Source of the DNA: Lytechinus pictus
Taxonomy: Eukaryota
Length of the DNA stretch: 64,000 bases
Reading direction: 5' to 3'
Assembly (NCBI RefSeq): GCF_037042905.1
Contig: NC_087251.1
Location: forward strand, 29,762,001 to 29,826,000
Part shown: piece by piece, positions 6,234 to 64,000 of the stretch
How the letters are laid out: each line of letters opens with the position of its first letter
How positions within the stretch are numbered: the stretch's first letter is position 1
Made by a program: the position numbers and the translations under genes
Notes under the pieces: generated by a model
Databases searched by the model: none
Seen by the model: the letters and a program-made list of their open reading frames with translations, nothing else
What the model was told of the DNA's origin: nothing

Positions 6234-6669
6234 ATGACAGGCGAAACGCTGACTTCGTCGACATCATCGATTACGCTACCAAGTAGTCATGGTCCACCTC
6301 GATTATCCGTACCCGCGGCGACGTCGCCTATTCATGGCACATCTCCTGGTCATCAGAGATCATCTTTCGCCATCCATGAACTCCTTGGGCTTGGTCGCCA
6401 GGAGCAGCCGAAATCGCGGGAAATCATCCCATCACGACCGCTCATCTCCCCGCTGATGGCGGCAGCGGCAGCCAGTCATCCTGCCATGGCCAGTGTGGCG
6501 TCGTGCATACCCGGGTTTCATCCGTCCACCGCCTCGCTTTACTTCGCTGCCGCCAAGGCTTCGGTGGGCTACGACCACGCTGCCCTGGCTGCCTTAGCCA
6601 TGCACAGTAGTTTCATACAACAAGCAAGAAGTCCAACTGGTCTACCCCCTTTGGCAGACTCGAGAAACG
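6234..6669 (+). CDS. Vsx: Vsx coding exon 1 (eh1/octapeptide, Ala/Pro/Ser-rich)
   Basis: ATG at 6234; [12 protein letters not shown] motif; donor G|GTAAG at 6670, phase 1. Confidence 0.92.
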
Positions 6670-9600
6670 GTAAGACAAACTCCAAAATGATTACAAATAG
6701 ATAGTCTATAAATTAACCGGTTTAAATTCCATAAAAAGTTACGTTTCTAAATCTCAACATACTTTATGTCACTGCAATCATGTTAAATTGTTCAAATAAC
6801 AGGACAAAAAAAACATTGTTTACAGTTAAAAGAATATTAATTGATTAATCGAGAAGAAAAATACTGAAATATTTCCTTGCTTAACTGTCAAAGATCTCTG
6901 TATCATCTTGCAAGTTTGTCTCCCCGATGCCGATGGTGAAAACATGATCTGTTATGTTTTATTCAGTTTACAGTGGTTGACGATGATAAAATATGTTGGT
7001 TTAAAAAGGCTTTATATTATATCATTACAATTGTTTATACTTTCGCTTAGGGATTGTTATTAACATACGATAATGAATATATTAGATATTATTAATGAAA
7101 AAATACTCCAATTAATATTCCACATCAAACGATAAAGACACTGACAATTTTTTTAATGAAATCATATTCATATTTTAAATAACACAGTTTCAAATGTGAA
7201 TGGCTTAAAGATAATACTATTATCAGTGCGAAAGACTCATGTTGTATTTTTTTTTCTATAGTCATATAGAAAGGTAAAGGCAATGCCATCTTCTACCTTC
7301 TTTGATATAAGACTCTCTCGGGATTGGCAAAACGTTGCCATAGTAACGGTTATAGGGAGAAATGATAATAACATGATTCACACTGCCATAATTCTGAAAT
7401 ATACTGCAAATTATTCTAGAATGTTTTATCGGAACAATAATTGTTATAAAAGAATAGTCACAACAATGGAAACATCGTGTAGATCTTATAGGAAACTTTC
7501 TTGTGCATGGCCGTTTCAATGAGACATTATTTCAGGTGTCAATGTTGTTTCCTTAATACAATAAAAACATTACTTAATGCAACAAATAGCTTTGTTACTG
7601 GAAGAACTTGTTCTTCACATTGGAAATCTGTAAATCGTTACCATACACCGAAAAATCGTATAGGATTATTTGAAACATTCTGTGTGGGAAAATGTCAAAT
7701 TTTACAATTCCTTTATTGCTTCATAACTGAAACTTCTTGAAATTAATTTAGGGTTTACAATAGATTCTAGGATTGTTATTATTTTGTAGCATCAATACAT
7801 GTTTATGAAACATCGGTCGAAAGGATACCTGTTATACCCTTCTTCGTAAGTGGTCGAATATTGTCCCATTATTTTTATGAAATTCTCTTTTAAACTTTTT
7901 TTTCTTTCAAATGAATTTGTTTAATGCATGTTACGATTATGATTTTTACAATTGTTGTTCCTTTGAAAATGCCCAAAAAAGCGTAAATTGATTCATTTAT
8001 TTATTCGTTCCTTTATTTACAAATTCTTGATTTATTTTATTATTGATTGACTTATTTATTTACCATTTGTTATTACTAAATCGGCATTATCAGTAATTCT
8101 ATTGATTTGTTTTCCACACGTGGAATCTATCTTTTGTGGTTTCATATTTATGGGATCATGCATCGCAGTTATATTCTAGGGGTCCATGATATTTCGTCGT
8201 GTTTATACCATATAAAAAGCAATATTTTACAAGGAAAAATAAAGTAAGAGACTGTGGTAAACACGATTGGGTTTATTCAGAAAAGAAAGTTAAGCCCTCA
8301 TTAGTGCTTGCTTATCATCTATCTTACTTATTTTTTTATGCATTTTTAGTTGTTTATGATTACATTCCTTTATATCCCATCGCGTCTCAAATACAGATTG
8401 GTCTCTGTCTTACAGCGATTTGCGAATGATCCGATTAAACGTAACTATATGGAAATCCATATCTGTATTTTTTTTTCCTTCAGGAAATTTGCAAAACCTC
8501 CCTTGTAAACAAGCACATCGAATTGTCAAGATAATGGTGAATGTATAGGTATACTTCATATCTGGAGAATTTTTTGAATAAATTTGCATGTTATATGTTG
8601 ACGTTGCTGGCTTTCCATAGTGTGTGGTTAATCAGAACAATCACATATCTTTTTAAGTCAGGGCCCAGGGATAAGATAAAGAGAGATACACTTTGATACT
8701 AACGTTTATATAAAGTTTGTCAATGACTTACTGTGACGACAAATTGAGAAATTGATTGTTTCTTTTTACGTTGCATGGCTCTGGGTCCTATGTTGTATAA
8801 CTGAAACAATTATTTTTAATATAGATCTGTCAGTTTCTTGTATTACTGTGGGTCTTTGGGTGCAATTATTGCAATGTGTTGTATTTAGACTTGGCTCTCG
8901 TTTCATAAAAGTTACTATTATTGTAACTTTGCCATCCTGTCATCCAATGGTAGCTCTCCGGGAATCCTTGATTTTGATTGGCTGTAGAGAATGGTTGCCA
9001 TGGAAGTGACAAGGATAGCTACGTTAGTATCTTTTCTGCAGCGAGGCCGAAATCTTAGATTTTGATGCACTTGACTTAACAAGAAATATATTGACCAAAT
9101 GACTATTTTAATGGACAACTTAAAAAAAAGGTATTTGGATAGAAGGAGAGAGAGAGAGAGAAACGGGGCGGGGGAAATGATTAGGGACGGATGGGGGCAG
9201 AGGGACATGTAAATGATACACTGCAAAAACTCCGGTGTTGATTTAACACCAGCCCGGAATCTATATAATGTCCACACCAGAGAAGTGTTAAACAACACCA
9301 GTTTCGTTTTGGTTTAACACCAGAAAGGTGTTTGTACAACACCAATTAGTATTAAAACAGTTTTGATTCCAAACTGGTGTTGTTTCAATACTTCTCTGGT
9401 GTGGACATAGATTCCGGGTTGGTGTTAAATCAACACCGGAGACTTTGCAGTGTAATTATACTTATTAAGAGACCATGCAAACGGACTCTTATTTTCATGA
9501 CTTTAAGATATACCAATCATAATGGTCATAGGCCCCAGTTATTTTTTTTTCTTCAAATTTAGTTTTGATAATTTACGGTAAAGGATTTATCAAAACAAAT

Positions 9601-21700: not shown

Positions 21701-24700
21701 CTTTCACCGCTGCAAGCGAAATCATGAAGGAATTACTCTAATCTAGAGAAGAAAAAAAGTTATTCATGCACGAGCAAAAGATGATAAATTAGAACAGAGG
21801 GAGGAAACAACGGAGGTAATTTGATAGAATCCAGAGAATTAGGAGAAACAAGAGTGGAACCGAAAAATTAATATGTATAGGTGTTTGCAACGTTGATGGA
21901 TGACGCGTCCGGAGCCCAAGAAACAGACGATTCCCCAAACTTTGTGTTTACCTCCTCTGAGTAATTATCCTGAAATGTTTGCTGGAGAATGCTGTGAGTT
22001 AGTAACGTGATTTGAAAATTGGATAATTGTTGAAATGACATCCCCAAACATTGGGACCGTTAGAGAGTTGATGATAGAGAGGGTAGCGGTCAAAGATCTA
22101 AACGCGAACGTTTGGTATGATCGATCTTACTTTGTCTCTTGCTGATTAAGTTGTTGTTTTCATCGGGTATTATGCCCTCTATGTATTATTTTGGCATTCC
22201 TTCCTAGCTTCCAAACAATTAAACAAAGAGTCACATATTTTGTGTCTTATTTTAATCGTACTTTGTGAGAAGGTAAAAAAAAAACCTTTCGGAAATTATT
22301 CAAAAATAGAACATTTCAATGGTATGATATTGTTTTCCGTTTGCCTTATGTCAAGTTGCAACTACTTTAAAGACCAAAATAATATGATGGTTAAAATATT
22401 ACATGAATATAACATAATGGAACATAAAGCAGCGCCAAAATCAGTTTGGTATAGGGTGATTTTCGAGATATTTCTTTTTTTAATTACTATTTCTACATCG
22501 CATGAATTGGCGTATTTTCTTAACATGCTTATACACCTAAAATGTTGGGCAACATACTGTCCACTGTGTTGGGTAATGTATGTTGGTAAAAAATATTCTG
22601 GGCAATCATTATCCTATTGAGCAAATTTATTACCCAATTATTAATATTTATTACCTTATTTGGACAGATTTTAAACAATAGTTGTGTGGACAGTATGTTG
22701 CCCAGTGATGGTTAAAAATTGGGCCTTTTTGCCAAACCTTTTTTTTTCCAAGTGTTAAAAAAGTAACTGGTGCACGAGCTCTCCTTGTATGCCGAAACAA
22801 GCCCGCTATGAAACCCAAAACAGATCTTCCCTATACTTGTTAACCATGTTTGGCACCATTCCGAAGGTGAATAGTCGAAAGAGATAAGCCAATAAGGGCT
22901 ACTATATAAAAGGGTGATGGCCCTTGTTTTCTTCTTTTTCTTCCGTTACTGTATAATTATCTTAATTCGATGGACAACGGTCTTGTAATGTATTCCCTAG
23001 TGAGATCACATTTGCTTTCAGTGAGACCCTTCTCTAATAAGATAATGAAATCAAACATCCTGATTCGAGAAGATTTCTTTTCTTCAAGGCTACTTATAGG
23101 AAGGAGAGGCACGGGTAAAGCGCAGCTTCTTCTTTTATAACCTACCACTTGGGGAAATGCATTTGAAAATGATACTCCATCGATAGGTCACAAATGTCAT
23201 TATTTCACCAATTAGATTCATACGATTGTCTGGATTTATGTGTAGGTATATACGTCGTTATATCCTGATATATTCAGCTGATGGATAAAGCTACTTCATT
23301 ATCTTCGTTAGATATCACATCGATGTAAAAACACCTAATACCACCGCAACTTTGACCAGACATGCATTTCCCAGTACAGTCATTCAAAAACAAATTATTG
23401 CAAATGTTCAACTTGAAGGTTGAATTTACGCTTATTTCAAAAGTCTCATGACCTTATGAGACATAACCACTAATGGGGAGAAAACAGTGATATACTTAAT
23501 ACTGTAAAATGAGAAAACAAAGAAGCTATAATCTGTATCAAACAAAACACCACCGAAAAAAGTGTTTACCTAGAGAATATTGAAACAAGTAAGTTTTCTT
23601 TGTTCTTCTTATTTTTTCATAATAATATTCCCCGATCTCCCACTTTTTCTAATTATGAGAAATTGAAAGCAAATCTATATTTGAACCCTTTCATTACAAA
23701 GCTTTGCCTAAAACGTTTCGTGGAATTGGAAAAGATGTCATTGGATTTGATAAATTTTGATTTTTCTCCATAACTATATCAGTATTTTAAATCCCCTTTA
23801 CACTAAACGTAAACAAGTACCTAAAATTCAAATACCTTATCAGAATCTTTTTGTATTCAATTAATAGGAATGTTAACTTCGATTATATTTTGATTCGATA
23901 TGTGCTAACTTTATTTTGGTCACATGAAACTGTTACTAAATTTGCTGATGTCACTACGTGCGGGCTGTTAAGGTGCCAGGTGCCCTATTACCGTGCGGAA
24001 ACGACTACGGGTATATAATCAAGCATAGGATTCTTACTAAGTACCTGTACCCCAACAAACTATATATTTTTGGAAAGCTTATGAGCTGATCTACACAAAA
24101 ATTTGCACTGTGGCATATTAGCTTTATGCATAAGCAAAATATGGTCATTCAAAGTCATGACTTTAAAAATCATGATTTTTCTCTATATGAACTTTCTATG
24201 GTTATAACTTCACAACATAGAGTGTAATTTAAGTTTTGATGGATTAATTTAATTCTCTGACTTCTTTGTGATGAATTTATGATGGCTTTAAGAAATATTC
24301 AGAGTAGAATTGTAAAAATTATGGATTAAACAAGCAGTCAGATAATGAGAAATTCAGAAAGGACTTTTATACACAACTCCACCTGTGGGGGTACCATGCA
24401 CAAAAACTATCATTATTTTGTTGTACTCTTCAAGATACACAATTCTACAAAATTTCATGCAAATCCAATGATTAGAACTCGAGTTATTACATTTTTCATT
24501 AAAAAAACCTCAATTTTGTATAATATCACGATAAAGAAAGGGCTATAATACTAATAATAACGGACATTTGTAACGCGCCAAGTCTGTCACATAGTGTATG
24601 TAACTTGTAGTCGCTGCCATATTGTGCAATACAGTAGCTCTCCCTATTTGGCCAACAGAGGGTGGTAGTCCACTTTGCTACATGGAATATCTGGGGCTTC

Positions 24701-27700
24701 AGCCAAAAAAAATCTGGGGATTTTCTGATTTTTTTTAAGGCAGTATCAAAGGTTTTGGGGACAGATTTAATCACTTCCGGTGTGTAAAATACTACTTCCG
24801 GTTTGAGAATTTTATGAAAATATGTTTTAACCCCCCTCTTATTAAAAAAAGAGGTAGAATATTGAGATAAAACAAGTTGCATGATGAAGTACACACATGA
24901 AACTAGCAAAGGAGACCAAAAAAATAAAATCATTAAAAAAAAAAAAAATTAGGGCACCTGTCACCTTAAACAAAAATAATCCAAACAGAAAGAAATCGTC
25001 TACTGCTTTACTTATAAGATTGCATGTATAGGCTCAATAGCCCTCGCTTTTGCATCGCTCTTGTTTATAGATTACTGGATGCTAATACTTGGTAATTATC
25101 GGAAATGAGGCAATGCGAACATGGGCATGATCAAAATTTGCGTTGAGGCAGAAGGCAGGCAGATCATACCATGCAGAGCCGAGGAAATCACTACGGAATA
25201 ACAGCAGACAACCAGCGGGCCGAGGCCCCGTGGCAAAAGCGTACCAATACCATCCGTCTACATCGTCTTGAAGATATGCCAAATTATCGCCTGCGTACCG
25301 AGGTTGGCAACGCAGTTACGTTTTCAACCCCGGACCATCTGTTAAAATGGAAATACGAGAATTACCCTCCTCCCCCATCGGGAGTATGTATCCTCAGTCC
25401 AGGGGGAGGGGCATCGAGAATTCATCAAAATTCGATACTTTAAATTTGAGTGATTAGTTGTGCATCCCAACCATGAATAATGGCGGGCGGATAGTTTACA
25501 TCTTAATACAGGGCTACAAGAATGTCACAACGCCAATACCGCTTTTCCTTCTTAAAGAATTACCAATATTAGCTTCAAATAACATGCGCAGCCCACCATT
25601 GATGAGTGAAATCTATTTACATCAAACAAGAATGATCAAAATGACAGGTGAATGTTGTCCATGGACTTAAAATAATACGAATATATATATATTTATTATT
25701 TATTGAATATGTTTTTAATATTGAAAAAAAAATATATTTGAAAAGATATCCGTGTAAAGTATTTTTTCAGTAGTAATGTTGGGGCCTGTTGCAGAAAAAA
25801 GTCAAAATATCAAGCGCAAGTCCCAAATACGGGTGCTTCATTGGCTGAAAATCAAGATTCGCTAGATTTTTTGAGTTGTGTTCGATCGCAACTCTCCCAG
25901 CAACGGGCCCCATCAACCATGTCAACGGAACTGTGTTTGTGTGGCGCGACTGGTCAGTATGTGTCAATAAGGTAAAATAAAAAAAAAACAAGGCACTTTT
26001 TAAAAGTGTTACCTAACTCATAAGCATGTTTGTCAGAAGCACATAGCCATTACTTTAAAAAAAAACTCTGCATTGTTTATTACAGGCCCATAGATGTGCT
26101 ATTTGCTTGTCCAATTGTGTTTCATTCGTGTAACTTCTGTAATTTGTTGCAGTTGTCCTGTAAACATGAAAATACTGTGAGTAAATAATACAATAATAAA
26201 TTATATTGAAAGTAAACGGACGATCGTCAATTGGGATGAGCTGACCTGATTATTAAAGAGCTTCGATAATTGATTAATGTCAAAATGTTATGATTTTTCT
26301 TTGCAGGACCATATTTACATCGTATCAACTTGATGAGTTAGAGAAATCATTCAATGAAGCTCATTATCCTGATGTGTATGCTCGAGAACTGTTGGCGCTC
26401 AAAACTGATCTGCCAGAAGACAGAATACAGGTATTAGTTTATTCTTTTAATTATCTGTATATAGGTTTTCTTTCTTCCTCTAATTTCTATAACTCTGTGT
26501 CTTGATTGATAATGACAGCAGAGAAAATTTCAAAATCGTAAATTTACCTCGATGCACTTTACAATGACAATGTACAAAAATAACAAAGTAATGAAAGCAT
26601 ATACTGTATGGGGGTACAAAAACGGATACACACAACAGATTAAGACAACGTTATGCAAACCAGCCTCACAACCATCTAAGAAAAAGAATCAGAGGGAAAA
26701 TTTGTTTTCAATTTAAAAGAAAAGAAGAGAAAGAAAAGGGGTGTGATTTTGACCAGTTTTCCTTCTGGTTCCGCGCCTGCCCACAAAACATTTTACACCT
26801 ATAGATAACAAAAAATCATAAGCATTCAGACGTAAGCACTTGGTAACACCAACATCCTTTGATACTAAGATCTTATTAAAAAAAGATCACCCTAGATAAT
26901 TTATCAGTAAGTTCGGGGGCTGCATCACAGGGGGCGACCGTCTTCTATATATGATTTGTTTTTAAGCATGAAAAAAGAAAAATGGAATGAACGGAGAAGA
27001 AAGGGGATAATGAAGAAAACAACAAAGGACAGAACACTCAGAAAAATTTTACTCAATATTGGGTAGAAAAGGGAACATGCATGTTTGCTGGGTATCTTTT
27101 TTACCCCATATTGGGCTATTTCAACGCAACATTGCGTAAAATTTACGAATATTTTTACCCAACCAACATGCATGTTTCCATTTTACCCAATATTGGGTAA
27201 ACCTTTTTTTTTCGAGAGTGAAGAAAGAGGAGCATAAAAAGGAGAGTTTTGGGTCGTTTAACTCTGTAATAACTATATTATTCAATTAAGATGAATAACG
27301 TTACCTGGTCGTCTCGGCCCATTTTAGCGAAATACATTTGCGCTGCATGCCCCTGGGGGTAATGAATGAATGTTTTTGTATTTATTTACCATCAAAATGA
27401 TCAAACTAGATTAAAAATCAACTCCAAATGACTGAAAATAGGCATATTTTATACCAAAAAAAGAAGACACAATTTATGAGAAATGTAATCATAGTTAACA
27501 TCACAGTTTCTTGTTGTGTTCAATGTTATGTTTTGTTAATCACGTTTACACCGTATGGCAGGGCTAACAAAGTAAGTTACAAATATATTCAAGAAAATGC
27601 GTTTGAGAATTTTTGAGGCATTTCCCATTTTCAACTTTAATGCTATCCTACATCTCAATGGATATACACTTTAAATACGGAAATGGCATGAAAGATATGT

Positions 27701-33700: not shown

Positions 33701-35477
33701 TTGCACATCCGGAATTATTGGGGAGCAAAACGTTATGTTTGCCCCCAAAAAAATTTTAATTGGTGGGGCGATCGCCCCCTATATTTATTCAACGATATAC
33801 TTTTATATTGCGCAGTATTTTACCAAGATAAGAATAAAAATTGGGTTATAATTAGGATTAAATTTCTCATATCGGTCTAACACATTTTATCGGGCTACTT
33901 CAGCACGTTTGAAAATGGAGGCATTTGATTAATGAACAGTTTTTCCCCAAGATCCTCCCTTAATGTGTTTCGTCCTTTTCGAATGCCATTTCCCTTTCGT
34001 AACTTACTCAATCATTTTTGTCTTCCTTCTTTCTTAAACCGTCCTTCATTATCTGTTTCCTTCATTAATATCTTCTATTTATTCTTTGTTGTATTTCATT
34101 TGTCATTGATCCATGCTTTTATATACCTTTCTTATTTTCATTTCCTTCTCGTAGGTGTGGTTTCAGAACCGTCGAGCTAAGTGGCGAAAGAAGGAGAAGT
34201 GCTGGGGACGAAGCAGTGTGATGGCAGAGTACGGCCTGTATGGGGCAATGGTTAGACATTCGCTACCTTTACCCGACAGCATCCTTAAAGCGGCCGAAGA
34301 GGGGGACAGTTGTGCTCCATGGTTGTTAGGTCAGTATTCAGCATCTCCCTTGAAAAAAGAAGTCAATGAATCATAGAAGACATTATGTAGGATTCTAAGT
34401 CTTCCCATCTCTGTAAAATTGAACCCGAACTGATCTCTCTAATGTGCCCAGCACAAATATTGTCAAGAACAGAAGATGAAGTCTTGGACATCTTGTCTAA
34501 ATGGATTATTGCTCGTGAATCAAAAGTTTGAAAACTTGAGCCTCTAGAAAATTCAAATACATAATAATTTATATTATAGGCCCTATTAGAAATTTTCCGA
34601 ATGAAAATTTAGGAATTTCAACTTTTTTAATTTCCTAAAGTAGTGTTAAAAATCTTTTAAGGTAGAGTCTTTTTTTTCTTCTGAAAAAAAAAATGGTTGA
34701 AATGTAAATGGAATTATCCATTTTCCTCTCTCTTTAATGTAAATTAGATAACTATTCAGGAAAATTTATCATTGTCAGAAGAGATATTATCGTCAACAGA
34801 CTAGTGAACGTATCAATCGAAAAGATTGTTATTACAAACAAAGATTTGATTCACAAAATCTATTTGGTATTCTCGAGATGATTTTGTAGGATTGGTGATT
34901 GGTCGGTTCTTATATTGTTATCTCTATTCATATTGAAATATTCATAATATTCTCTACATAAACAGGTATGCACAAGAAATCGGTAGATGTCCCTGATGTG
35001 ATGGGTGACGAAGAGAATGAAAAGATTTACAGAGAAAGCAAGGGTAATATCACCAAGGAAACACGACATCAACAGAAAGACTCAAGTATGAGCGGTGCTG
35101 ATGAGATCAGGACCAATAGTATCGCTTTGTTGAGAGCCAAAGCTCAAGAGCATAGCGCCAGGATCCTAAGCGGTAAGGGAACGGCATGTGCCACATCTGC
35201 AGGATGCTCAGACGTGTCAGAGGCTGTATCGAGTAGGGACCATCATCCATCGGTGGATTCACGCCTTCCGAGCGGGGAGAAGAGAGACAGTGGGGTGTGG
35301 TCGGGGGATGACGAACAGGTCAATTGTTCGGCGTCGTCTCCTGATGGCCACGCCCATGGGCGGGATATCCAAAGAGAAGAATATCAGGATCGACATGGTG
35401 ATTCGGCATCGGGTGAATCTTCGTCCAGTGACGACAGCCACGATGAAGAATGTGAAGAAATCGAGGTCGATTCATGA
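6234..35477 (+). CDS. Vsx: Vsx/Chx10 (visual system homeobox, Prd-like CVC class), spliced CDS join(6234-6669,20986-21085,26307-26430,34155-34329,34966-35477), 448 aa
   Basis: Five exons with GT-AG introns and matching phases (1,2,0,1). Total 1347 nt = 448 aa + stop. Contains the FAIHELLGL octapeptide, Q50 homeodomain, CVC domain and OAR motif. Confidence 0.96.
9219..9452. mobile_element. 234-bp CACT-ended MITE in Vsx intron 1
   Basis: TA|CACTGCAAAAACTCCGGTGTTGATTTAACACC ... GGTGTTAAATCAACACCGGAGACTTTGCAGTG|TA; long imperfect TIRs. Confidence 0.9.
12576..12643. repeat. (TA)n microsatellite
   Basis: Pure dinucleotide run. Confidence 0.95.
15523..15743 (-). mobile_element. 3' end fragment of an L2-type LINE
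   Basis: - strand encodes [29 protein letters not shown], then TGTAAAGCGC..GCGCTATATAAAT and an (ATT)n tail. Confidence 0.8.
20986..21085 (+). CDS. Vsx: Vsx coding exon 2 (basic NLS, homeodomain N-terminal arm [10 protein letters not shown])
   Basis: Pyrimidine tract + TAG acceptor ending 20985; completes G|AA codon; donor AG|GTATG at 21086. Confidence 0.93.
22532..22755. mobile_element. Decayed relative of the GPCR MITE in Vsx intron 2
   Basis: Shares AAAATGTTGGGCAACATAC-GTCCAC and TTGTGTGGAC-GTATGTTGCCCA with 55333-55528; ends eroded, boundaries approximate. Confidence 0.7.
23972..24965. mobile_element. 994-bp non-autonomous DNA transposon, TTAA target (Kolobok-like)
   Basis: TTAA|GGTGCCAGGTGCCCTA ... 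TAGGGCACCTGTCACC|TTAA (15/16 TIR). Confidence 0.88.
26307..26430 (+). CDS. Vsx: Vsx coding exon 3 (homeodomain helices 1-2, [13 protein letters not shown]...EDRIQ)
   Basis: TTTGCAG acceptor; 124 nt; donor CAG|GTATT. Confidence 0.97.
27035..27220. mobile_element. 186-bp CACT-ended MITE in Vsx intron 3
   Basis: AA|CACTC...GAGTG|AA; inverted CAATATTGGGTA and AACATGCATGTT blocks. Confidence 0.8.
30690..30819. mobile_element. Harbinger/PIF-like MITE
   Basis: GGGCCCGTAACACAAA ... TTTGTGTTGCTGGGCCC in CAG/CTG context. Confidence 0.75.
32938..33779. mobile_element. hAT-like family A, copy 2 (right TIR lost), Vsx intron 3
   Basis: Colinear high similarity to 753-1831. Confidence 0.9.
34155..34329 (+). 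CDS. Vsx: Vsx coding exon 4 (helix 3 [12 protein letters not shown] + CVC domain)
   Basis: Long pyrimidine tract + [31 protein letters not shown]; donor G|GTCAGT. Confidence 0.97.
34966..35477 (+). CDS. Vsx: Vsx coding exon 5 (CVC end GMHKKS, OAR motif [15 protein letters not shown], acidic tail)
   Basis: ACAG acceptor ending 34965; in frame with exon 4; TGA at 35475-35477. Confidence 0.95.
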
Positions 35478-49051: not shown

Positions 49052-52000
49052 TAGTATCCCGTAATTAGTAACCAACTGGAATAAAATTATTGGAAATGGT
49101 TTTTTGACTGATTTGAGTAGGTATGGGTGTCAACATTTACCAAAAAAAAGTTAGGAGGAATACGGGTTGGGGAAAGTGCTTTTTTTCAAGGTCAAAGGTC
49201 AATGACCTTTTTAAATATACTGTATCATGGTATCTCCCAGATAAAATATTACAGGTTGGTGATCATGGTGTCAAAATGCACAGATTCTTACAAGAAGATC
49301 AAATAAAATAAAATCAAGTACCTACAATGCTCATTCACCCATGAAATTCAAGGTCAAAGCCTTTCAAAGTTCAATGACCTTTTTTACATTATATACCATA
49401 TACGGTATAATGGTATCTCTGAGATGAAAAGGTGCAGGTTGGTGATCTTGGTGTCAAAATGCAGAGGTTCTTACAGAAAGATCAAATATAATCAAATCAA
49501 GTACCTACAATGCTCATTCACCAATGAAATTCAAGGTCAAAGCCTTTCAAAGCTCAATGACCTTTTTTTTACATTGTATACCATATACGGTATAATGGTA
49601 TCTCTGAGATGAAAAGGTGCAGGTTGGTGATCTTGGTGTCAAAATGCAGAGGTTCTTACAGGAAGATCAAATTAAATAGAATTAAGTACCCAGAATGCAC
49701 ATTAAACAATAAAATTCAAGGTCAAAGCCTTTCAAAGGTCAATGACCTTTTTTTACATTATGTATCGTACTGTATAATAGTATCTCTGAGATGGAACGGC
49801 ACAGGTTGGTGATCGTTGTATCAAAATGCCCAGATTCTTACAGGAAGGTCAAATAAGATAAAGTTAATCACCTAGAATGCATATTAATCCATAAAGTTCA
49901 AGGTCAAAGGTCAATGACCTTTTTACATAGGCTATATATCATATAAAGGTATCTCTGAGATAAAACGCTGCATGTTGGTGATTTTGATGTCAAAAAGCAA
50001 TTTTTGCAAGAAGATAAAAAAGACTCAAAATAATCATACAGAATAATCCAATATCCAAAGTCAAAGGTCAAAAGTTGATAGATATTTATATATCCATGCA
50101 TGATTCCCCCCAAAAAAGAAATTAATCCATTATATTCACATTCTATTTGTAAATAATAGAAAGAGAGATAACTATTTGTAATGAAAATATTGGAAGTCTA
50201 TTAAATAATTTCATTCTGAAATAAGGATAAAAAATGGCCATGGAAAATATATTTAGGAGTTAAAGGTCAATCAACTATGTCAATAACGTCAGGGAATTTA
50301 AGTAAATAGGTCGATATAACGTGATTGTGGCATGTAGGTATAGTGATTCTGATGGAAAAAAGACTGACCCGCGTGGAAAAAGAACACAAATTTAATAGTT
50401 GAATCCTTGACCAATTATGATGTCAAAATATAAGTCCGAGGTAAAATTGGATCAAATAGCACTTTTTCTTATAATATACTGTAATGGATTGACAAAAGTG
50501 TTAAAAAATCATGTGTGATATAATTTTAAATGGTGACAATGGTGAAGTTACCTAAAGTAGTAGCATTTAGATATGCATTTTATAAATCTAAATCAAGGTA
50601 CTAATTTCTCTGTAGCAATAGGTCACTAACCTCAAATGCTACAATCAATACTATAAAACTATAACTTAATCTGTAAATGGAAAGGATAGGCCTAACTCTT
50701 AGGGCAAGCATCATCCGATAACATTTTCATATAGCCAGGGACAATGACGAAGAATTAAAATAAGGCAATCATAAAGCTGCAGCTAATTTGTCATAGATGA
50801 AGTTAAATGTCTCAACTTCAGCAAAGAGTAATTGAACTCTTGAAAACCTTCTGACATTTTCAAGACTTTTATCTGGCCCATTCAATGAAAGCCTTACGTT
50901 CTGTCAAGGGATATCAGACCAGGATGTTGCACAGCTTGATTCTCAAGAACTGGAAGTGGTGCTGTATGACTTTTGTTAGGTCGATGGATGTGTACTTGTA
51001 AGCTATTATCTCCTTTTGAATTTCATTGCTATATGCCTAATTTGTGCATGATAGCAATCAGTTGTTCTGGACCAAAAACATGATCCTTGTACAAACTAAT
51101 ATCTAGTAGAAATAGCATCATGGGTGACGTACGGCAGAGAGCAGATATGAAGTTTTCTCCTGCAACATTAGCATCACAAGAGATTCTGGCAGTTCGCAAT
51201 GAACTGATGAAAGGTAATGAATAATAATACGGGAATTCACCTTTGTTGAAGTTGATATATATGTAATTTACTACATGTATGACAGAAGCTGCAGCTCTAA
51301 TGATGGCCTTCATTTCATCATCATCATCATCCCTCTGCTGTTTGGAAATGCTCTCAGATGATGCTAGCTGTGACATGAGAGTTAGACCTATCCTATCCAT
51401 TTTCAAAAGATTAAGCTAATATAGTTTATAGTATTTATTATAGAATTGAGGTGAGTGGCCTATCGCTGGAGAGAAAAGACATGACAACCTTGATTTAGAT
51501 ATAATGATGCATTAAATGCTGCTACTTAAAATAAAAATCATTTCAAATTATATACTTGATTTTATTTATTTTTTCAGTGCTTTTGGCAATGCATCGCAGT
51601 ATATGAAAAAGTGTTATTTGGTTATCAACATTTTTTAAATTTCCACTGATATTTTGGAAAGGGCTCATTGACATCTGACCCCTAAATACATTCTCCATGG
51701 CCTTCATTATTTCAGACCGAAATTATGAAACCTCCATGTTTTCATTACAAATTAGCCATGGTTATTTACGTTATTCAGAAATAAAATATGAACATAAACA
51801 CTTTTTTTTTTGTTATTTTTATGTCATATAGATTATATATTTCCTCTGATGTAGGATTTCAAGGGTGAAAGTTTATTCTTTATACTTATTTTAGTTTTGT
51901 TTAATTGTCTTGTACAAGTCTTTGCATTTTGGCACCAAGATCACCAACCTGCGGTGTTTTATCTCAGAGATACCATTATTATTATCTAATGTTAAAAAGG

Positions 52001-52859
52001 ACATTGACCTTTGTCCTTGAATTTTATGGGTGAATGTGCATTCTCGATGCTTAATTTTATTTTATCTTCCTGTAAGAATATGTGTGTTTTGACACCAAGA
52101 ACACCAACCTGCGCCGTTTAATCTTAGAGATACAATTATATAATGTGGTATATATACATGTAGTATAAAAGGTCATTGACTTTTGGCCTTAGATTTTACG
52201 CGTGAATGTGAATTCTAGGTACTTAATTTTATTATATTTGATCTTCTGGTAAGAATCTGTGCATTTTGACACCATGATCACCAACCTGTGCTTTTTCAGC
52301 TCAGAGATACCATTATACAGTATGGTATATAATGTAAATAGGTCATTGACCTTTGAAAAGCTTTGACCTTGAATTTTATTGGTGAATGTGCATTCTAGGT
52401 ACTTAAGTTTATTTTATTTGATCTTCTTGTAAGAATCTATACATTTTGACACCATGATCACCATCACGTACCTTATCATCTCAGAGATACCATTATACGG
52501 TATGGTATATAATGTAAAAAGGTAATTGACCTTTTGAAAGGCTTTGATCTTGAATTTTATAGGTAAATGTGCATTCTAGGTAATTAATTTTATTCTATTT
52601 GATATTCTGGTAAGAATTTGTGCATTTTGACACCAATATCACCAACCTGTGCCTTTCCATCTCAGAGATACCATTATACAGTATATACAAAAAGGTCATT
52701 GACCTTTGACCTTGAAAAAAAGCACTTTCCCCAACCCGTATTCCTCCTAACTTTTTTTTGGTAAATGTTGACACCCATACCTACTCAAATCAGTCAAAAA
52801 ACCATTTCCAATAATTTTATTCCAGATTGGCTCTTTTGTGGTCTAATTTAGGGATACTG
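49052..52859. mobile_element. 3.8-kb fold-back DNA transposon, probably Academ-like, non-autonomous
   Basis: AAA|TAGTATCCC ... GGGATACTG|AAA; 137-bp identical inverted block; mirrored ~185-bp tandem arrays; interrupts the 3' end of the LINE ORF. The structure is certain; the superfamily is inferred from YR termini and the 3-bp TSD. Confidence 0.85.
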
Positions 52860-54074: not shown

Positions 54075-54958
54075 ATTAGTTGCGCCTTTTTTTTTATAAA
54101 GGGAATTTGACATTACATTTTCTATGTTCTTGAATCGGTCGTGCGTCATGAAGCGAAAACAGTCTTGTGACCGGCAATTGAAAACCGTGCACATAATGGT
54201 TTAACCCTATTGATCTTCGGGGACATATAAGGCCTATGTATGCCCCCATGGCCCTGGGAAGCGGGGGTGATGTGTGTTATTTTCCATAGGCATCACCCCC
54301 TGGAAATCTGGTAGGTATGCCGTAGATATGATAAATGGCAGAAATGTAATGAAAATGAACGACAAGACATTTTGCTTGTCAAATGTCACGGGACCGACAG
54401 GGCTCCTTCATTTTGTAGTGAAGATCAAATTTGCGACGGCCGAGTTCATTATTGTAAATGCATGTCAGACCCGAAATTGCTCAAAATGTCATTATGAACA
54501 AATCAAAAATTCGTAAATGTATCATTATTTTCCCCTTACTAATCAAAACTAAGTTTATTTATTTTTGAACTTATCTTGTTAACGATTTTTAAATGCAAAA
54601 TCCCAAAGAAATACTTACAGGAAATTTAAAAAACAATAAACTACATAAGACAATTAATTCTCATTTTTGTAATGAGCATTTTATGATTTGATTTCACAAA
54701 AATATCTATATCAAGATCTAATTTATTCATAGATTTATAGCCAAAGTCTAATTTCATGAATTGAATTACAAAATAAATTCAGATAAAATGTATAGATTTC
54801 GTTGAATTTATTTATGCAAACACGTGGATTACATCATTTCCTACCAACGTGCAAATTATCGTCATGATCGCATGATTCGCGACCGAAAACCTATGGGGGC
54901 ATAATGCCCTCCTACTTCCTTGTACCGAAAAGACCAAGAATAGCCCGGGACTTCAAGG

Positions 54959-56395
54959 TTAGGCCGGTCCATCCTTGGTAGAGAAGTTATCGACGTCAGG
55001 ATCATCGAACATCGCTTTACTTTGGACCTTTCCCCCTACAAACAAGTCCTTGACTGCATTGCGGAACTCCTGGTAACGGATGCTGTAGATGATGGGGTTG
55101 ATGCTGGAATTGACAGCAGCTAGGATCAGGGCGCCGTTGGCAATCTGAGAATTCGCTTGGATTTGATAACGGAGCACTGTTTTAAGAAAGAAAATCACTT
55201 TAAAGGGAGTCCAGCAAACAAGGTATGCTATGATAACGATGAGCATCAGTTTAATAACAGCTCTGCTCGCGGCAAGATGGTGTGATTTAGATCCTCTCAA
55301 GCGCTTCGACTGGGCTTTGAGCTTGACTGCTACACTCTTAAAAATGTTGGGCAACATACGGTCCACACAACAATTGGTTAAAACTTTATCCAATTCTGGG
55401 TAGTTTTACACCAATAATGTGTGCTTTGGGTGAAAACTACACAGTATTGGTGTAAAACTACCCAGAATTGGATAAAGTTTTAACCAATTGTTGTGTGGAC
55501 CGTATGTTGCCCAACATTTTTAAGAGTGTATTAAGGTTTGGGTAGCAACCATAATGATGGCTGGTATGAATAGTTGAATGGTTAGAAAGTAAAGAGCAAA
55601 CGCCATGTCAACCGCATATGTCATTTCCACAACATCACATCGACGCTTCGCTTTGTCCACATCAGCTATGAAGTAACCGGGGATGCAAAGCAACATTGAT
55701 AAGATCCATAAAATCACAACCACCTCAGATACTCGCCGTTTGGTTAAAATCCTGTTAAAGTAGATGGGATGAGTGACCGCGATGTAACGCTCAATAGAGA
55801 TGGCGGATAGCACAAACCCTGACAGGAATGTCCACGCCAACATGTAGGCCGGAAGCCATACCAGTTTGCAGTAGACTCGTCCGAGCCAGGATACCGGAAC
55901 ACCTTTGGCATATGGAACAGGAAGCAGCCCAACCGAGGTCAGGAGATCTGCCGCCGCAAGTGCGCCTATGAGTGTGTCGGTAGATCGGCTCTTAGCGCGC
56001 CGCTGAAAAAGAACAATGATTATCAGAAGGTTACCAATGATCCCGATCACCCCGACGACTAGCTCTCCAAGAGTGACCCAAGTCCAAGATATCGAATACC
56101 AAGACCATGAGCCAACCTTATCTGTATCATCAGCAGGGTATTCAGACCTTGATGTCTCAGTATCCCATATATCTTCAAGTTCTTCATGAAGCGTGTTATT
56201 CAGACCTATCAAGGAATCCCCGTTTTCATCTTCCAGCGCGAGTCCTTTAACAGTTGCGTCAGGGCTACCACCAGGAGTAACACTTGTTCCCCAATCGCTC
56301 TCAGTTGTCCCCGAAGATGTCAGGGAGACAGCTTCCACACTCATTGCTAATGAGAGAGAAAGATACAGCAGTTGCACTAAACCAGTGAGATCCAT
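54959..56395 (-). pseudogene. Intronless rhodopsin-like (class A) GPCR, orphan/galanin-allatostatin-receptor-like, interrupted by a MITE (412 aa when the MITE is removed)
   Basis: GN in TM1, LAAAD, ERY, TM4 W, FIP, CWTP, NSSINPIIY and helix 8 FRNA. Deleting 55331-55528 joins QTLI to AVKLKA in frame. No other frame-disrupting lesions seen. Confidence 0.93.
55333..55528. mobile_element. 196-bp MITE, CACT termini (CMC/EnSpm-like), inserted in the GPCR CDS
   Basis: Perfect 84-bp TIRs (55333-55416 / 55445-55528); TA duplicated at 55331-55332 and 55529-55530. Confidence 0.95.
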
Positions 56396-56869
56396 GGACC
56401 TTATGACAGATAAAAGAACCTATTAGGACAAAGAGATTGAAGTTGTGGATTAATATTGCTACTTTCAGCTAGTATAGGGCCAGGGGGTTGCTGAACGGGG
56501 GGGGGGGGGACTTCCGGCCTAGCCCCCACTTCCGTTCTCATAAAATTCTTACTTTGAATGACTACACCAAGCTTAATTATTTGAGAAGGATGCAATATCG
56601 AAGAAAAACACGATGAGAGCGAGAGCGTTAACAAATAAAAGATGGGAATTAAAACATGTGAAAAAATTAATGAATCTGATATAATTGCAATTAATTCATA
56701 AATTTTTCTGCATTCCTCTCTTTTCCCCTATATCCCTTTTTTGTTCTACTTTATGTCTTGGGGGAACCTAGAATCTTTCCAGGTAATTTTCAGGAAACAA
56801 AAAATTGCAGGTTCATGAAATCCAAAACTCGAAATGTACACAATATCTGAATGTAAAGATTTTGAATAC

Positions 56870-58520
56870 TAAACCTTTGACTTATATAATTATTCAATAT
56901 ATCATTATCAACTGATACATTTCCAAGCAAACTTAAAATAGCATGGATTATCCCTGTTTTTTTAAAGATGATTGTAATTTATTTCAGAATTATCGACCTA
57001 TATCTTTGTTGCCCTGTATATCAAAATTACTAGAAAAATGTGTTTGTAATCGAGTCTATGATTTTCTTACAAAACATAAAATACTCTCAGATTGTCAATT
57101 TGAATTCAGACATAATTACTCAACCACACATGTTTTAGTTAATTTGCAGGGCAATGTGACAATGGCAATTAAAAATAATAAATTTTGTATTGGAATTTTT
57201 TATGGATTCATCAAAAGCATTCGATAAAGTAGACCATTCGATACTTTTTTTCAAAATTACATCATTACGGGATACGTGGTACTCCTTTTAACTTTTCTTT
57301 AAAATCAAAGCTCCATAGAAAATGATTTGCAATATAATCTGTTTAACATGTCTTCTTCTGATTTCAGCAATATTTCACGTGGAGTGCCACAGTGATCCAT
57401 TCTCGATCCGTTACTATTTTTAATTTACATCAATGATTTGACCAAATCTTCCCATGTTTTCAATATATTATTTATGCCGATGATACAACTCTCATTTATT
57501 ACCAGTCTGCTTTGGAAAATGTTGAATACCAAATTAATAAAGGACTACTAATAGTAGTGTGGAATATACTTTTATTCAATCTTAGTAAAACAATGTTTTG
57601 TTTATTTCATAATAAGAATTACAGGTCAATCATCCTTGATGAAATTCAAAATCGAATGTTATTACTTTTCCTGAAGCATTATCGGACTGTAATTGCAATA
57701 TAATCTGTTTAACATGTCTTCTTCTGATTTCAGCAATATTTCACGTGGAGTGCCACAGTGATCCATTGATGCGCATATAGATTTTATAACAAAGAAAATA
57801 TCCAATCGACTGGTATTATACATGTATAAATTAAATCTTAATGTGCCCTTCCCTACACTGTTAAAAATACCCTGATTTTTACAGGAAAAAAAGAAAATTT
57901 TGCAGAAAGCAATAACAGAATCATTCTGTAAATTCATAAAACAGGAATTTTTCTGCAATTTAACAGAACAGGTCTGTTTAAAAAGGAGAAAAGGGTGTTT
58001 TTTAAAGGAAATTTGTAAGATTCCATACACCAAGTACCAATTTCCTGTAAGATTACAGGTGTTCTCGAGACTCTGCTGCAGGAACTTCTTTTATTTTAAG
58101 GATGATTTTTTTCTAACAGTGTATACAACACTCTCATATCGCCATATTTGACTTACTGCATAGGTGTCTTGGGAAATTAATCTCAAGTTAAACTTGAAAA
58201 TTTGTTTAAGTTGCAAGAGAAGGCTTTACGTATATGTACAGGTAGTGAATATTATGCCCTTCCTGCTCCTCAGTTTTTTTTCGTTTAAAAACTGTAAATA
58301 TCTTTTATTTATTCAATTATCATATCACATTGCTTGGTTTTCAATATTTTCAAGAATTATTACAAAATATATTACCCATATTCTCAACAATCAAATTCAT
58401 TCCCATGAAACGAAACTCCGTAACTTGAAAGTAAAAATAACGCTGTCAAAAAAAATTGTTAGAAATACCCTAACAATAATTTAGAAACTATGCGTTTAAT
58501 AAATCCAATTCCAGTAAAAA
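56870..58520 (+). mobile_element. Degenerate CR1/L2-clade LINE RT fragment
   Basis: NYRPISLLPCISKLLEK, SKAFDKVDH, GVPQ*SIL, LLFLIYIND, with stops and frameshifts. Confidence 0.88.
57856..58121. mobile_element. 266-bp CACT-ended MITE inserted in a LINE relic
   Basis: TA|CACTGTTA...TAACAGTG|TA. Confidence 0.8.
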
Positions 58521-60902: not shown

Positions 60903-62129
60903 TCATCACCACCACCATTATCATTACTTGATACTTACTGATATTCATTTAAAGCAAATTGCGGTTATATGTATCATGGATGTATCTCTTAAATAAAAAA
61001 ATAGAGTTACCTTTATCCTTCTGTGATGATTTTACTTTGAATAGAGACATTCAGAGCGAATCATCAATAGACATTCTTTTCATTTTTCCGAGAATCGCTT
61101 CCGCCCGTAATTCATTTACCGCCCTTTCACACGGTAACAAAAATCGTAGTTTGAATGATGATTCCAGTGAAAATTAAGGGCTAATGACGAATTTTAGCGC
61201 GTGTGAAACCTAACTAGAATTACGAACGTTAATCACAGTCACGAATTCAAATTCTACTCCGGAGGTGAATTCCAGTTAAATTTCACTCAAATTACGTTAA
61301 GAATTTTACGTGTGAAAGGCTTGATCTCCAAAACATCTTTTTTTTTTTTTTTGGGGGGGGGGGCGGAGCTTACGTGTCCTTTCAAGCACTTCCGTAGATA
61401 ATACAATTGTCATGCACTCATCGTATCGATGCAGTGCTTCAAGTCACCAAGGGCACATACCGCCTTCGCTCGGGAATTCGAATTCAAATCACAGTTTTGG
61501 AGTGAGCATGTGAAAGGTCCGATGATTCTAAAGACGAATTGCAATAATAAATACAATGATGATTCAAGTGTGAAAAGACCCCTAGATACTAAGGACCCTA
61601 ATATTTAGAATTCAGTACCTTTATACGAGTTTTTAACAATATTTTATCTCTGAAAAAAGAATAAGAAGTATTTTATTTTTCTCAAAGACAAAGTACTCTT
61701 AATGTTATTTTTTCAAAATGCTCTTAATATTTTAGTGCATGAGTCCTTTAATTTTGTTTAAGATGCAAACGATGCTTACATTTCTTTCTTAATATGCAAT
61801 AGGGCAAAGTTTTTTTTTGTAATTGTTAGTTCCTATTCTGTTATTATGAACGCTTTATTTCAAGCTGCGTTTTACTTCAATGAACTATCTTTTATGTTAT
61901 TTAAGGGACTAAATGCTTAAAAAATGTTTATGCTTAGCTGCTATTATGTATAATTATCTGCAAATGTGACACCATTTTTGTCAATGTGAATATTGTTTAA
62001 GGTGATGAAAAATCAAACAACAAACAAACTATTACCACCATGACACCTTCCCACCACTACACCATCATTATACCATTATAATCACTATACCACCTTTGTC
62101 GTCATCAGCGTCAGCATCGTCGTCATCAA

Positions 62130-64000
62130 ATTTAGAATGTATTTGGTTTGAATTGCATTATCCAAACAAGTCTCCAATTCTGGTTGGGGAGTTTTATAGA
62201 CCTCCGAATTCTCATGTTGATTTCTTTGAAGAATTAGACAGAAACTTGGACGCTGCTCTCTTGGAAGATATGAGCAGTATTATTTTGGGTGATTTCAACT
62301 GTGATTGTATGCCACAACAAAATGATGTGAATGGGGAAAAAATAACGTTTTATACAAATATGTACGGGCTGAGTCAGCTAATTGATACTGCTACAAGAGT
62401 TACAAATACCTCTGCCACTTTAATTGATTTGATATTTGTATCAGACAAAGAACTATACAGTGAATGGGGTATATTTGAAACTAGTATAAGTGATCATTAT
62501 ACAATTCGCGATTTCAGTGCTAAGATGTATAAAGATTCCGAATATGCAGAATTTCGTTCATTTAAAAATCTTGATGAGGAATCATTTTATAGTGAATTGA
62601 GAAATATTCCTTGGCAGGTCGTAAAAGATATAGATGATGTTGATGTTGCTTGGGATGTATGGTTGACTTTTTTCAATGATGTAATCAACAGGCACATTCC
62701 CTTTTGTAAAAGGCGGATAAGAAAAAAAGCTTGTCCTTGGATATCTGACGAGGTCGTCAAGCTAATGAAGGAACGTGATAAGGTTCTAAAAACAGCTAAA
62801 GCTAACAAAAATAATGATATTTGGGACACATACATATTTCTGAAAAATAAAGTTATTCATCTCATGAGAAAAAGTAAAAAAGAATATAATGCAAACCAGA
62901 TTTCACAAAATCATAACAATAGTAAGAAAATGTGGAGATGTTTGAGAGAACTTGTGCCCAAGTCATTACCTATTTCTCCCAACACCATAAACGTAGATGA
63001 AACAGATGTGTCGGGCAATGCAAATATTGCTGAAGCATTTAATGAATTTTTCATTTCAAATGCTACTAATATTACTAAGGGCCTGCAAAGGGATACGTCT
63101 CAACAGATAGTTCAAGTAGATGATACAAATGTTGGTTCAATTCACTCTCAATTTGAGCTAAAGTTGATTACAAGAGATTTTGTTTTGAAACAGATTGATA
63201 ATCTAAGTATAGATAAATCAACTGGGGAAGATCATGTCAGCTGCAAACTTTTAAAGATGACAAAAAATGTTATCGCAGAGTCCCTTTGTGATATTATTAA
63301 CAAATCCCTTTCTACTGGAGTTGTTCCTCATGAATGGAAAAAGGCTCGGGTAGTACCAATATTTAAATCTGGTGATATGTCTTCGTTGAATAATTACCGC
63401 CCCATTTCTATATTACCAATCGTGAGTAAAATTTTAGAAAGGGCTGTTCACCAACAGCTAAGTGAATTCTTGGACGTGAATGATTTATTACACCCAAATC
63501 AATCTGGTTTTCGGCCTATGCATTCAACAACTACTGCCCTTGCAAAACTTGTAAATCAGTGGTCGTTAAACATTGATAACAATTTAATTTCTGGAGTTGC
63601 GTTCATAGATCTTCGGAAGGCCTTTGATACCGTGGACCATGAGCTGCTTTTAAAGAAATTAGCTTGCATTGGTTGTAGTAATAGGACTATCACTTGGTTC
63701 AAATCATATTTATTTGATCGACAACAAGTGACACAATTCAAAGGAGCCAAATCGCACCCTTCAATAGTCAAATTAGGCGTGCCACAAGGGTCAATTCTAG
63801 GTCCCCTTTTATTTTCAATATATGTTAATAGTTTACCTAAATGTATTCATGAAGGTATCATAGATATGTACGCTGACGACACTTACCGTCAGTGCGAATG
63901 ATGCGACAGTTTTGGAAGAAAAATTAACTGTTGCATTAAACAAGGTCATGGCATGGATTAAAGATAATCAGCTCGTCCTCAACACTGAAAAAACTTGTGT
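62130..64000 (+). mobile_element. Young 5'-truncated CR1/L2-clade LINE ORF2 (partial APE + RT), runs off the window
   Basis: ~590-codon open frame: YRPP, GDFN, SDH, NYRPIS, DLRKAFD, GVPQGSILGP, YADD. Frameshift just after YADDT; the other frame continues LTVSAND...LNTEKT. Confidence 0.95.

Follow-up and report, generated by a model that had tools for sequence, protein, structure and literature searches.

A palindromic MITE interrupts an intronless class A receptor gene of Lytechinus pictus and leaves two open halves in a likely null allele

Receptors divided experimentally into a TM1-5 and a TM6-7 portion are able to reassemble, a precedent invoked by the first-pass annotation of the locus described here and borne out by Table 1 of PMC11093360. 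The same source reports that co-expressed M2 halves bind and signal, that M2 TM1-5 alone shows no ligand binding and that M2tail alone goes mainly to mitochondria. M2stop228, a single mRNA with a stop after TM5, signals with 45 fmol/mg of sites against 980, about 5% of the wild type, and its downstream product is attributed to an IRES; in M2stop400, the stop lies just before the in-frame TM6 methionine and no downstream product is made (PMC11093360). Natural truncations to five helices are also described, namely CCR5delta32, D3nf, GHS-R1b and GnRH-R, most of which are dominant negative in vitro (PMC3477067).

Three further bodies of work frame the comparison. Reinitiation after long ORFs is presented as very rare without TURBS-like signals; in caliciviruses it depends on a UGGGA motif with a restart close by, and for LINE-1 and influenza B the source mentions a route by looping (PMC5972666). 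Among transposons, a duplicated TA together with CAC..GTG ends is compatible with the CMCT/EnSpm clade, whose ESTA elements likewise duplicate TA (PMC12730594). Sea urchins are rich in receptors, with 920-979 GPCRs in S. purpuratus, and the motif LxxPxYxxxxxLxxxD is given as the signature of echinoderm OR-like receptors (PMC7042368). A narrow literature search, which does not establish absence from print, returned no published natural GPCR split by a transposon.

The 64-kb stretch of DNA analysed here (the window) carries on its minus strand an intronless class A GPCR gene interrupted by a MITE (Table 1). We consider it likely that this in-frame insertion in the TM5 end of an orphan receptor has produced a loss-of-function (null) allele. 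Such was also the default of the first-pass annotation, and it is supported both by an intact protein of the same species, P0045, which differs at 3 of 395 residues, and by the analysis, which found no route for translation of the second ORF.

Reading of the ORFs confirmed the two frames that the annotation had described. The first runs from ATG 56395 over 291 codons to ...ATQTLI-H-S-TAA, its last three codons (CAC TCT TAA) being derived from the element. The second opens in frame at the element's ATG 55357 and gives a 132-aa product, MLPNIFKSV-AVKLKA..., that ends at the native stop. Two other statements proved equally sound: the frame measures 412 aa once the insert is removed, and an out-of-frame ATG at 55517, 2 nt past the premature stop, precedes ATG 55357 and opens an ORF of 19 codons. 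The second in-frame TAA within the insert was absent from that annotation. Neither ORF holds any other lesion, and together they keep every native residue. A profile search assigns positions 1-176 of Pfam 7tm_1 to the first ORF and 177-260 to the second, with 93.3 and 45.5 bits for the halves and 147.7 for P0045, all above the curated cutoff of 30.5.

Table 1. Features of the interrupted receptor locus in window positions; helix limits for the 5' ORF are those of the model of intact P0045, with residue numbering from P5.50.
Feature	Position	Strand	Description
5' ORF	55520..56395	-	291 aa + stop; hydrophobic leader, acidic N-terminus, TM1 to most of TM5 (5.61), then H and S from the element
MITE	55331..55530	.	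196-nt element 55333-55528 (5'-CACTCTTAAAAA...TTTTTAAGAGTG-3') between TA copies 55529-55530 and 55331-55332
First in-frame TAA	55520..55522	-	inside the 5' arm
Out-of-frame 19-codon ORF	55458..55517	-	from ATG 55517; first AUG met by a scanning 40S
Second in-frame TAA	55406..55408	-	in the 3' arm
3' ORF	54959..55357	-	132 aa: nine residues from the element, end of the TM5 helix (10 residues), ICL3, TM6, TM7, helix 8, tail; native stop 54961-54959
Nearest AATAAA	54807..54812	-	147 nt after the native stop, 708 nt after the premature stop; candidate signal
Intron implied by model P0003	55177..55638	-	462 nt, GT..AG; skips MITE, TM5 and TM6; donor GAT|GTGATG, 5/9 consensus
Hypothetical rescue intron	55337..55549	-	donor ATG|GTTGCT (55549), 5/9 consensus; acceptor TTTTTAAG| (55337), 3' arm; resulting receptor would be 5 aa short of the intact one

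The insertion adds 198 nt, or 66 codons, and the frame is kept, with both TAA stops inside. The element is a typical MITE in being short (196 nt), in having terminal inverted repeats and in lacking coding capacity, with stops in all three frames. Its arms (55331-55427 and 55434-55530, 97 nt each) are 97% complementary and form a near-perfect palindrome, whose predicted fold reaches -165.2 kcal/mol with a z of -25.7; none of 200 shuffles was equally stable. TA stands on both sides, and the empty site is seen as a skip of 198 nt in a contig of run X1 and as uninterrupted sequence in the proteins P0045, P0044, P0001 and P0002. The termini, 5'-CA..TG-3' (CAC..GTG) next to a TA duplication, are those of EnSpm/CMCT ends. 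Since Tc1/mariner elements likewise duplicate TA and the analysis yielded no partner transposase, the assignment to a superfamily is provisional.

The family of this element is abundant in organism A, since 1,218 of the 2,165 X1 records placed fit two places of the stretch and the loose ends at element tips are many and varied. Three TA-CACT..AGTG-TA elements and one decayed relative of the MITE are present in the 64-kb window. The two further elements belong to other families and lie, with the decayed relative, among 9217-9454, 57854-58123 and 22539-22704, the last being the region of the relative, which matches near 22.7 kb at 87% over 46 nt and contains the same ATG. At position 55409 the window has C, on which its two arms agree with each other; in organism A, about 90% or more of the family reads and of the contig depth carry A. 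A single metagenome match (L001) to the 21-nt element end had no second arm and was dismissed as chance.

Other features accompany the receptor gene in the window. Two pyrimidine-rich AG sites directly upstream of ATG 56395 (56400-56440, minus strand) suggest a putative 5' UTR intron, and farther upstream of the gene stands an exact 75-nt direct repeat (57327-57401 and 57693-57767), its copies 366 nt apart. Two tandem-repeat blocks of about 1.2 kb (49072-50301 and 51635-52830) are inverted and 79% identical. On the plus strand, a frame of 630 codons free of stops (62009-63898) encodes endonuclease and reverse transcriptase domains and is a piece of a non-LTR retrotransposon, and exons of a homeobox gene extend from 6222 to 35474, with an OAR motif near 35110 (Pfam). 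We take this gene to be Vsx/Chx10-like, with what are presumably an eh1-like motif near 6350 and a CVC-like stretch after the homeodomain pieces at 26350 and 34158.

A protein search with the receptor gave 43 matches. The best 37 constitute a sea-urchin family, 35 of them named Lytechinus, Strongylocentrotus or Diadema and 2 unnamed; the other six (P0038-P0043) are distant and were excluded from statements on the family. P0045, from L. pictus, is contiguous across the insertion site and matches 271/272 and 121/123 residues of the two halves, for a total of 392 identical residues out of 395. At the three sites that differ, the window residue is also present in another intact copy, and the broken allele therefore has no private amino-acid change. 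The intact paralogue (P0044/P0046) is 93% identical to P0045 and their accessions adjoin; it is listed on a contig equal in length to that of the window's own gene model. In L. variegatus, P0001 and P0002 likewise form a pair with neighbouring accessions. From this identity and from the accession numbers adjacent to those of the paralogue, we infer that P0045 is the empty allele of the interrupted gene. The tree used here, whose deep joins carry long-branch warnings, was read only for the pairings P0045/P0044 (97/86) and P0001/P0002 (97/88). In both, the paralogues group by species and not by gene, which suggests gene conversion or separate duplications.

Four of the 24 listed sequencing runs, including X1, X8, X10 and X12, were compared with the stretch. 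One X1 contig of organism A DNA skips exactly 198 nt (55331-55528) and a second has the same net length; at several diagnostic codons the DNA letters of this organism match L. variegatus proteins. Run X8 gave 4 contigs, all on the element. Among the contigs from the runs compared, none contained a filled site or spanned the whole stretch. Given the intact P0045 of the same species, the intact paralogue and the sister-species contig without the 198 nt, the insertion is likely recent and still polymorphic in L. pictus.

The receptor itself displays the ERY, P5.50, CWxP and NPxxY motifs of class A (rhodopsin-type) proteins. A model of intact P0045, built on an alignment of 34 proteins, is seven-helix (mean pLDDT 66.9, 249 + 6 residues at 70 or more) and matches solved receptors with a probability of 1.00. 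The nearest are peptide receptors at only 20-25% identity, and the database names of the relatives conflict (apelin-, opioid- and QRFP-like). Position 5.58, usually Y in class A, is Q in 34/34 aligned proteins. After TM1 the echinoderm OR-like signature is not matched: the region reads ...SRSTDTLIGALAAADL, in which S, T and D are invariant in all 34.

In class A receptors the cytoplasmic end of TM5 lines the G-protein pocket. The break falls after residue 272 of a helix predicted at 243-282 (P0045 numbering), at 5.61/5.62 and 10 residues short of its end, and ICL3 proper would comprise about 4 residues (~283-286) in this model. None of the 34 aligned proteins has an indel at the cut site, just past which L5.65 is conserved in 33, Q5.68 in 32 and S5.69 in 31 of them. 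As modelled, the cut deprives the first half of the conserved end of TM5, 10 residues long. The first-pass annotation had placed the split after TM5. This stands as far as the ORFs go, with a stop, an in-frame methionine before TM6 and TM6-7 on the second ORF; it does not stand for the position of the cut, which lies inside the predicted TM5 helix and not in ICL3, so that the TM5 helix of the first half would be incomplete. This half ends without a basic residue after TM5. The second has 9 K/R and no D/E in its first 36 residues, and its N-terminus may resemble a mitochondrial presequence.

The conjunction of a stop and an in-frame ATG is no more than chance, the ATG being stock sequence of the element arm. 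In silico insertion of the element at every TA of the empty frame (63 sites), in either orientation, always truncated the protein. At 24 of these sites the element also supplied an in-frame ATG whose reading continues as far as the native stop, and 2 of the 63 placed the break between the TM5 end and TM6 in that phase, about 3% per coding insertion. With an abundant element and a lineage of so many GPCRs, such a position is unremarkable. The two open halves are no sign of selection either, since the allele is nearly identical to the intact one and, at so few differences from P0045, open halves are expected without it.

Fragmented members apparently recur in this sea-urchin receptor family, to judge by its protein records. 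When the 132-aa ORF was compared with proteins 72-231 aa long, one of 10 candidates matched, P0057. This TM6-7 fragment (130 aa) belongs to a different L. pictus paralogue and begins at the native TM5 methionine; the earlier version of the record, P0013, is whole. Similarly, the L. pictus record P0059 (228 aa) is a C-terminal fragment and P0060 (386 aa) is whole. Ten pairs of older and newer L. pictus records were compared; in three, one of them for the present gene, a whole protein in one record corresponds to a fragment in its counterpart, and P0007 of L. variegatus is without TM7. Downstream TM6-7 ORFs thus evidently arise without this element, and assembly error could be among the causes of the other fragments.

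The probable loss of function would proceed as follows. Scanning ribosomes would start at 56395, stop at 55520 and then be recycled. The message past the stop would become a 3' UTR of about 700 nt with a 97-bp hairpin, which would make it a likely target of nonsense-mediated decay and dsRNA editing. Any TM1-5 product, deprived of TM6-7 and of the TM5 end, would neither bind ligand nor signal and would probably not leave the ER. The TM6-7 ORF would likely stay untranslated, its ATG merely part of the element arm, and the loss of the receptor would likely be buffered by the 93%-identical paralogue.

Of the other readings, the one that survives best is still unlikely: a TM1-5 fragment would be made and act as a dominant negative, retaining the intact allele or the close paralogue in the ER. 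Most of the natural 5-TM truncations (CCR5delta32, D3nf, GHS-R1b and GnRH-R) act in this manner in vitro (PMC3477067), a near-identical partner exists, and the coding region has no downstream intron, so that junction-dependent decay would not be triggered. However, this reading requires a stable mRNA and co-expression in one cell, and the message would carry a 708-nt 3' UTR with a long hairpin. The fragment would also have no basic residue after TM5 for anchoring, and the published effects, in vitro as described in PMC3477067, are probably mostly those of over-expression.

Removal of the MITE by splicing is quite improbable. It would yield either a 307-aa TM1-4 + TM7 product or a near-full receptor 5 aa shorter. 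The first corresponds to a public L. pictus model, P0003 (307 aa), which is identical to the first ORF of the window over residues 18-252 and joins TM4 to TM7; its implied intron has a pyrimidine-rich acceptor at 55177. For the second product, an in-frame AG is available in the 3' arm at 55337. Both donors, however, fit only 5/9 consensus positions, a score surpassed by 7 other GT sites of the same ORF, which reach 6, and the acceptor in the arm is predicted to be paired at 0.999. As the genomic frame and the intact relatives run colinear through the MITE region, P0003 looks like a predictor's detour round the stop.

The first-pass annotation had also raised the possibility of a bipartite receptor, and for this claim no translation route was found. 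TM1-5 from the cap-proximal AUG and TM6-7 from AUG 55357 would have to assemble and signal, an outcome that we hold to be very improbable by all conceivable routes taken together, namely reinitiation by looping over the hairpin, an activity like that of an IRES, or a transcript of its own for the second half. In its favour, both ORFs are open and jointly hold all native residues, M2stop228 and the co-expressed M2 halves bind and signal (PMC11093360), and looping is mentioned for LINE-1 and influenza B (PMC5972666). The basic stretch before TM6 would moreover suit a cytoplasmic N-terminus. The hairpin would keep the AUG near the terminating ribosome, with a pairing that would loosen once at least 15 nt are unwound by the ribosome: predicted at 0.999 within the 97-bp stem, and still 0.999 with the 5' arm held unpaired to 12 nt past the stop, it drops to 0.5-0.9 at 15-24 nt. 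In the fold prediction, this loss of pairing is the only point that favours the looping route.

Against this stand the properties of the AUG, a chance feature of the element that lies 162 nt after the 291-codon ORF and behind the closer out-of-frame AUG. The first-pass annotation had rightly cautioned that its context is weak (GACCGT-ATG-T, with C at -3 and T at +4) and its hairpin strong. No UGGGA (TGGGA) motif occurs within 160 nt upstream of the premature stop, so with a restart 162 nt downstream the arrangement is not that of TURBS-dependent termination-reinitiation. Rfam gave 0 matches over 54500-57000. Ribosome shunting, which needs a very short upstream ORF, was dismissed. The cut falls within the modelled TM5 helix, and M2tail alone is mainly mitochondrial (PMC11093360), which bears on the 9 K/R and no D/E of the second half. 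As weak evidence, none of the exact 132-, 291- and 274-aa products was found in the protein collection (0/3), neither half being an exact match there. It is equally doubtful, and to the same high degree, that the allele is a one-step natural bicistronic GPCR, in which the hairpin loops the AUG to the terminating ribosome and a low-abundance working receptor segregates with the intact allele.

There is likewise very little probability that the interruption is an assembly artefact, or that P0045 is a third copy and the broken gene a fixed pseudogene. No read or contig spanning a filled site was seen in the runs compared, as this reading would have it. Nevertheless, the TA duplication is clean and the family termini are present at both junctions. 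P0045 differs at only 3 of 395 residues, against 7% for the paralogue, and of the 7 other record pairs in which both members are whole, 6 show allelic differences of 0.2-2%.

RNA from the runs X10 and X12, labelled as organism A, was scanned for about a quarter of each (12.9 million records each). The 486 and 522 reads that matched all fell in 4 bins over the element, with 0 in the other 26 bins. These reads are other copies of the element inside transcripts, and the receptor orthologues are silent in those samples, a result that bears on the orthologues of organism A and not on the window allele. At A/T sites, changes of the type A>G or T>C made up 33/40 and 30/40 in the RNA of X10 and X12, against 36/73 in the X1 DNA contigs (Fisher p 0.0006 and 0.01), and G/C sites showed no such excess. 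This hints at A-to-I editing of MITE-family hairpins, which copy or individual differences could mimic, as the DNA is not from matched individuals. That editing would turn both UAA into UII, read as Trp, and allow read-through to a 478-aa receptor with a 66-aa insert is exceedingly improbable: although the insert is in frame, its only two stops lie inside the stem and the A>G/T>C excess was recorded, four specific edits would be required on one molecule, a singly edited UAA being still a stop, and the TM5 helix would be broken by the 66 added residues. The RNA reads, moreover, belong to copies and individuals other than those of the DNA, whose count spans the whole stretch, so that copy differences can mimic the excess.

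The best reading of this locus is therefore that of another transposon knockout in a redundant receptor family, and of a marker of recent MITE activity. It also carries a warning for annotation, as the public 307-aa model probably invents an intron. Should the second half be translated and assembled after all, a transposon would have created a natural GPCR of two chains, with reinitiation that follows a long ORF and is assisted by a hairpin. A true bicistronic allele would offer a ready-made test of split-receptor evolution within one species.

Compared with the described systems, the null allele proposed here shares with M2stop228/M2tail a single mRNA, a stop after TM5 and a downstream in-frame methionine before TM6-7. 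M2stop228 is engineered, however, with its stop in the i3 loop and its tail made via an IRES in a long native loop, as described in PMC11093360, whereas the window allele has an ICL3 of about 4 residues in the model, a cut in the predicted TM5 helix and a paired AUG derived from the element. With CCR5delta32, D3nf and GHS-R1b it would have in common a TM1-5 product without TM6-7, non-signalling or retained in the ER; in contrast with these, as PMC3477067 presents them, its predicted TM1-5 ORF was made by a transposon in an intronless frame. Like the expanded rhodopsin-type surreal-GPCRs of PMC7042368, the receptor has a single coding exon, near relatives found in sea urchins only and near-identical paralogue pairs by species, but it does not match the OR-like LxxPxY...LxxxD signature after TM1. 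Finally, the element resembles the CMCT/EnSpm-type MITEs of PMC12730594 in being non-coding and about 200 nt long, with inverted arms, 5'-CAC..GTG-3' ends, a 2-bp TA duplication, an abundant family and an empty site in relatives, and differs from them, as that source describes them, in arms that cover nearly its whole length.
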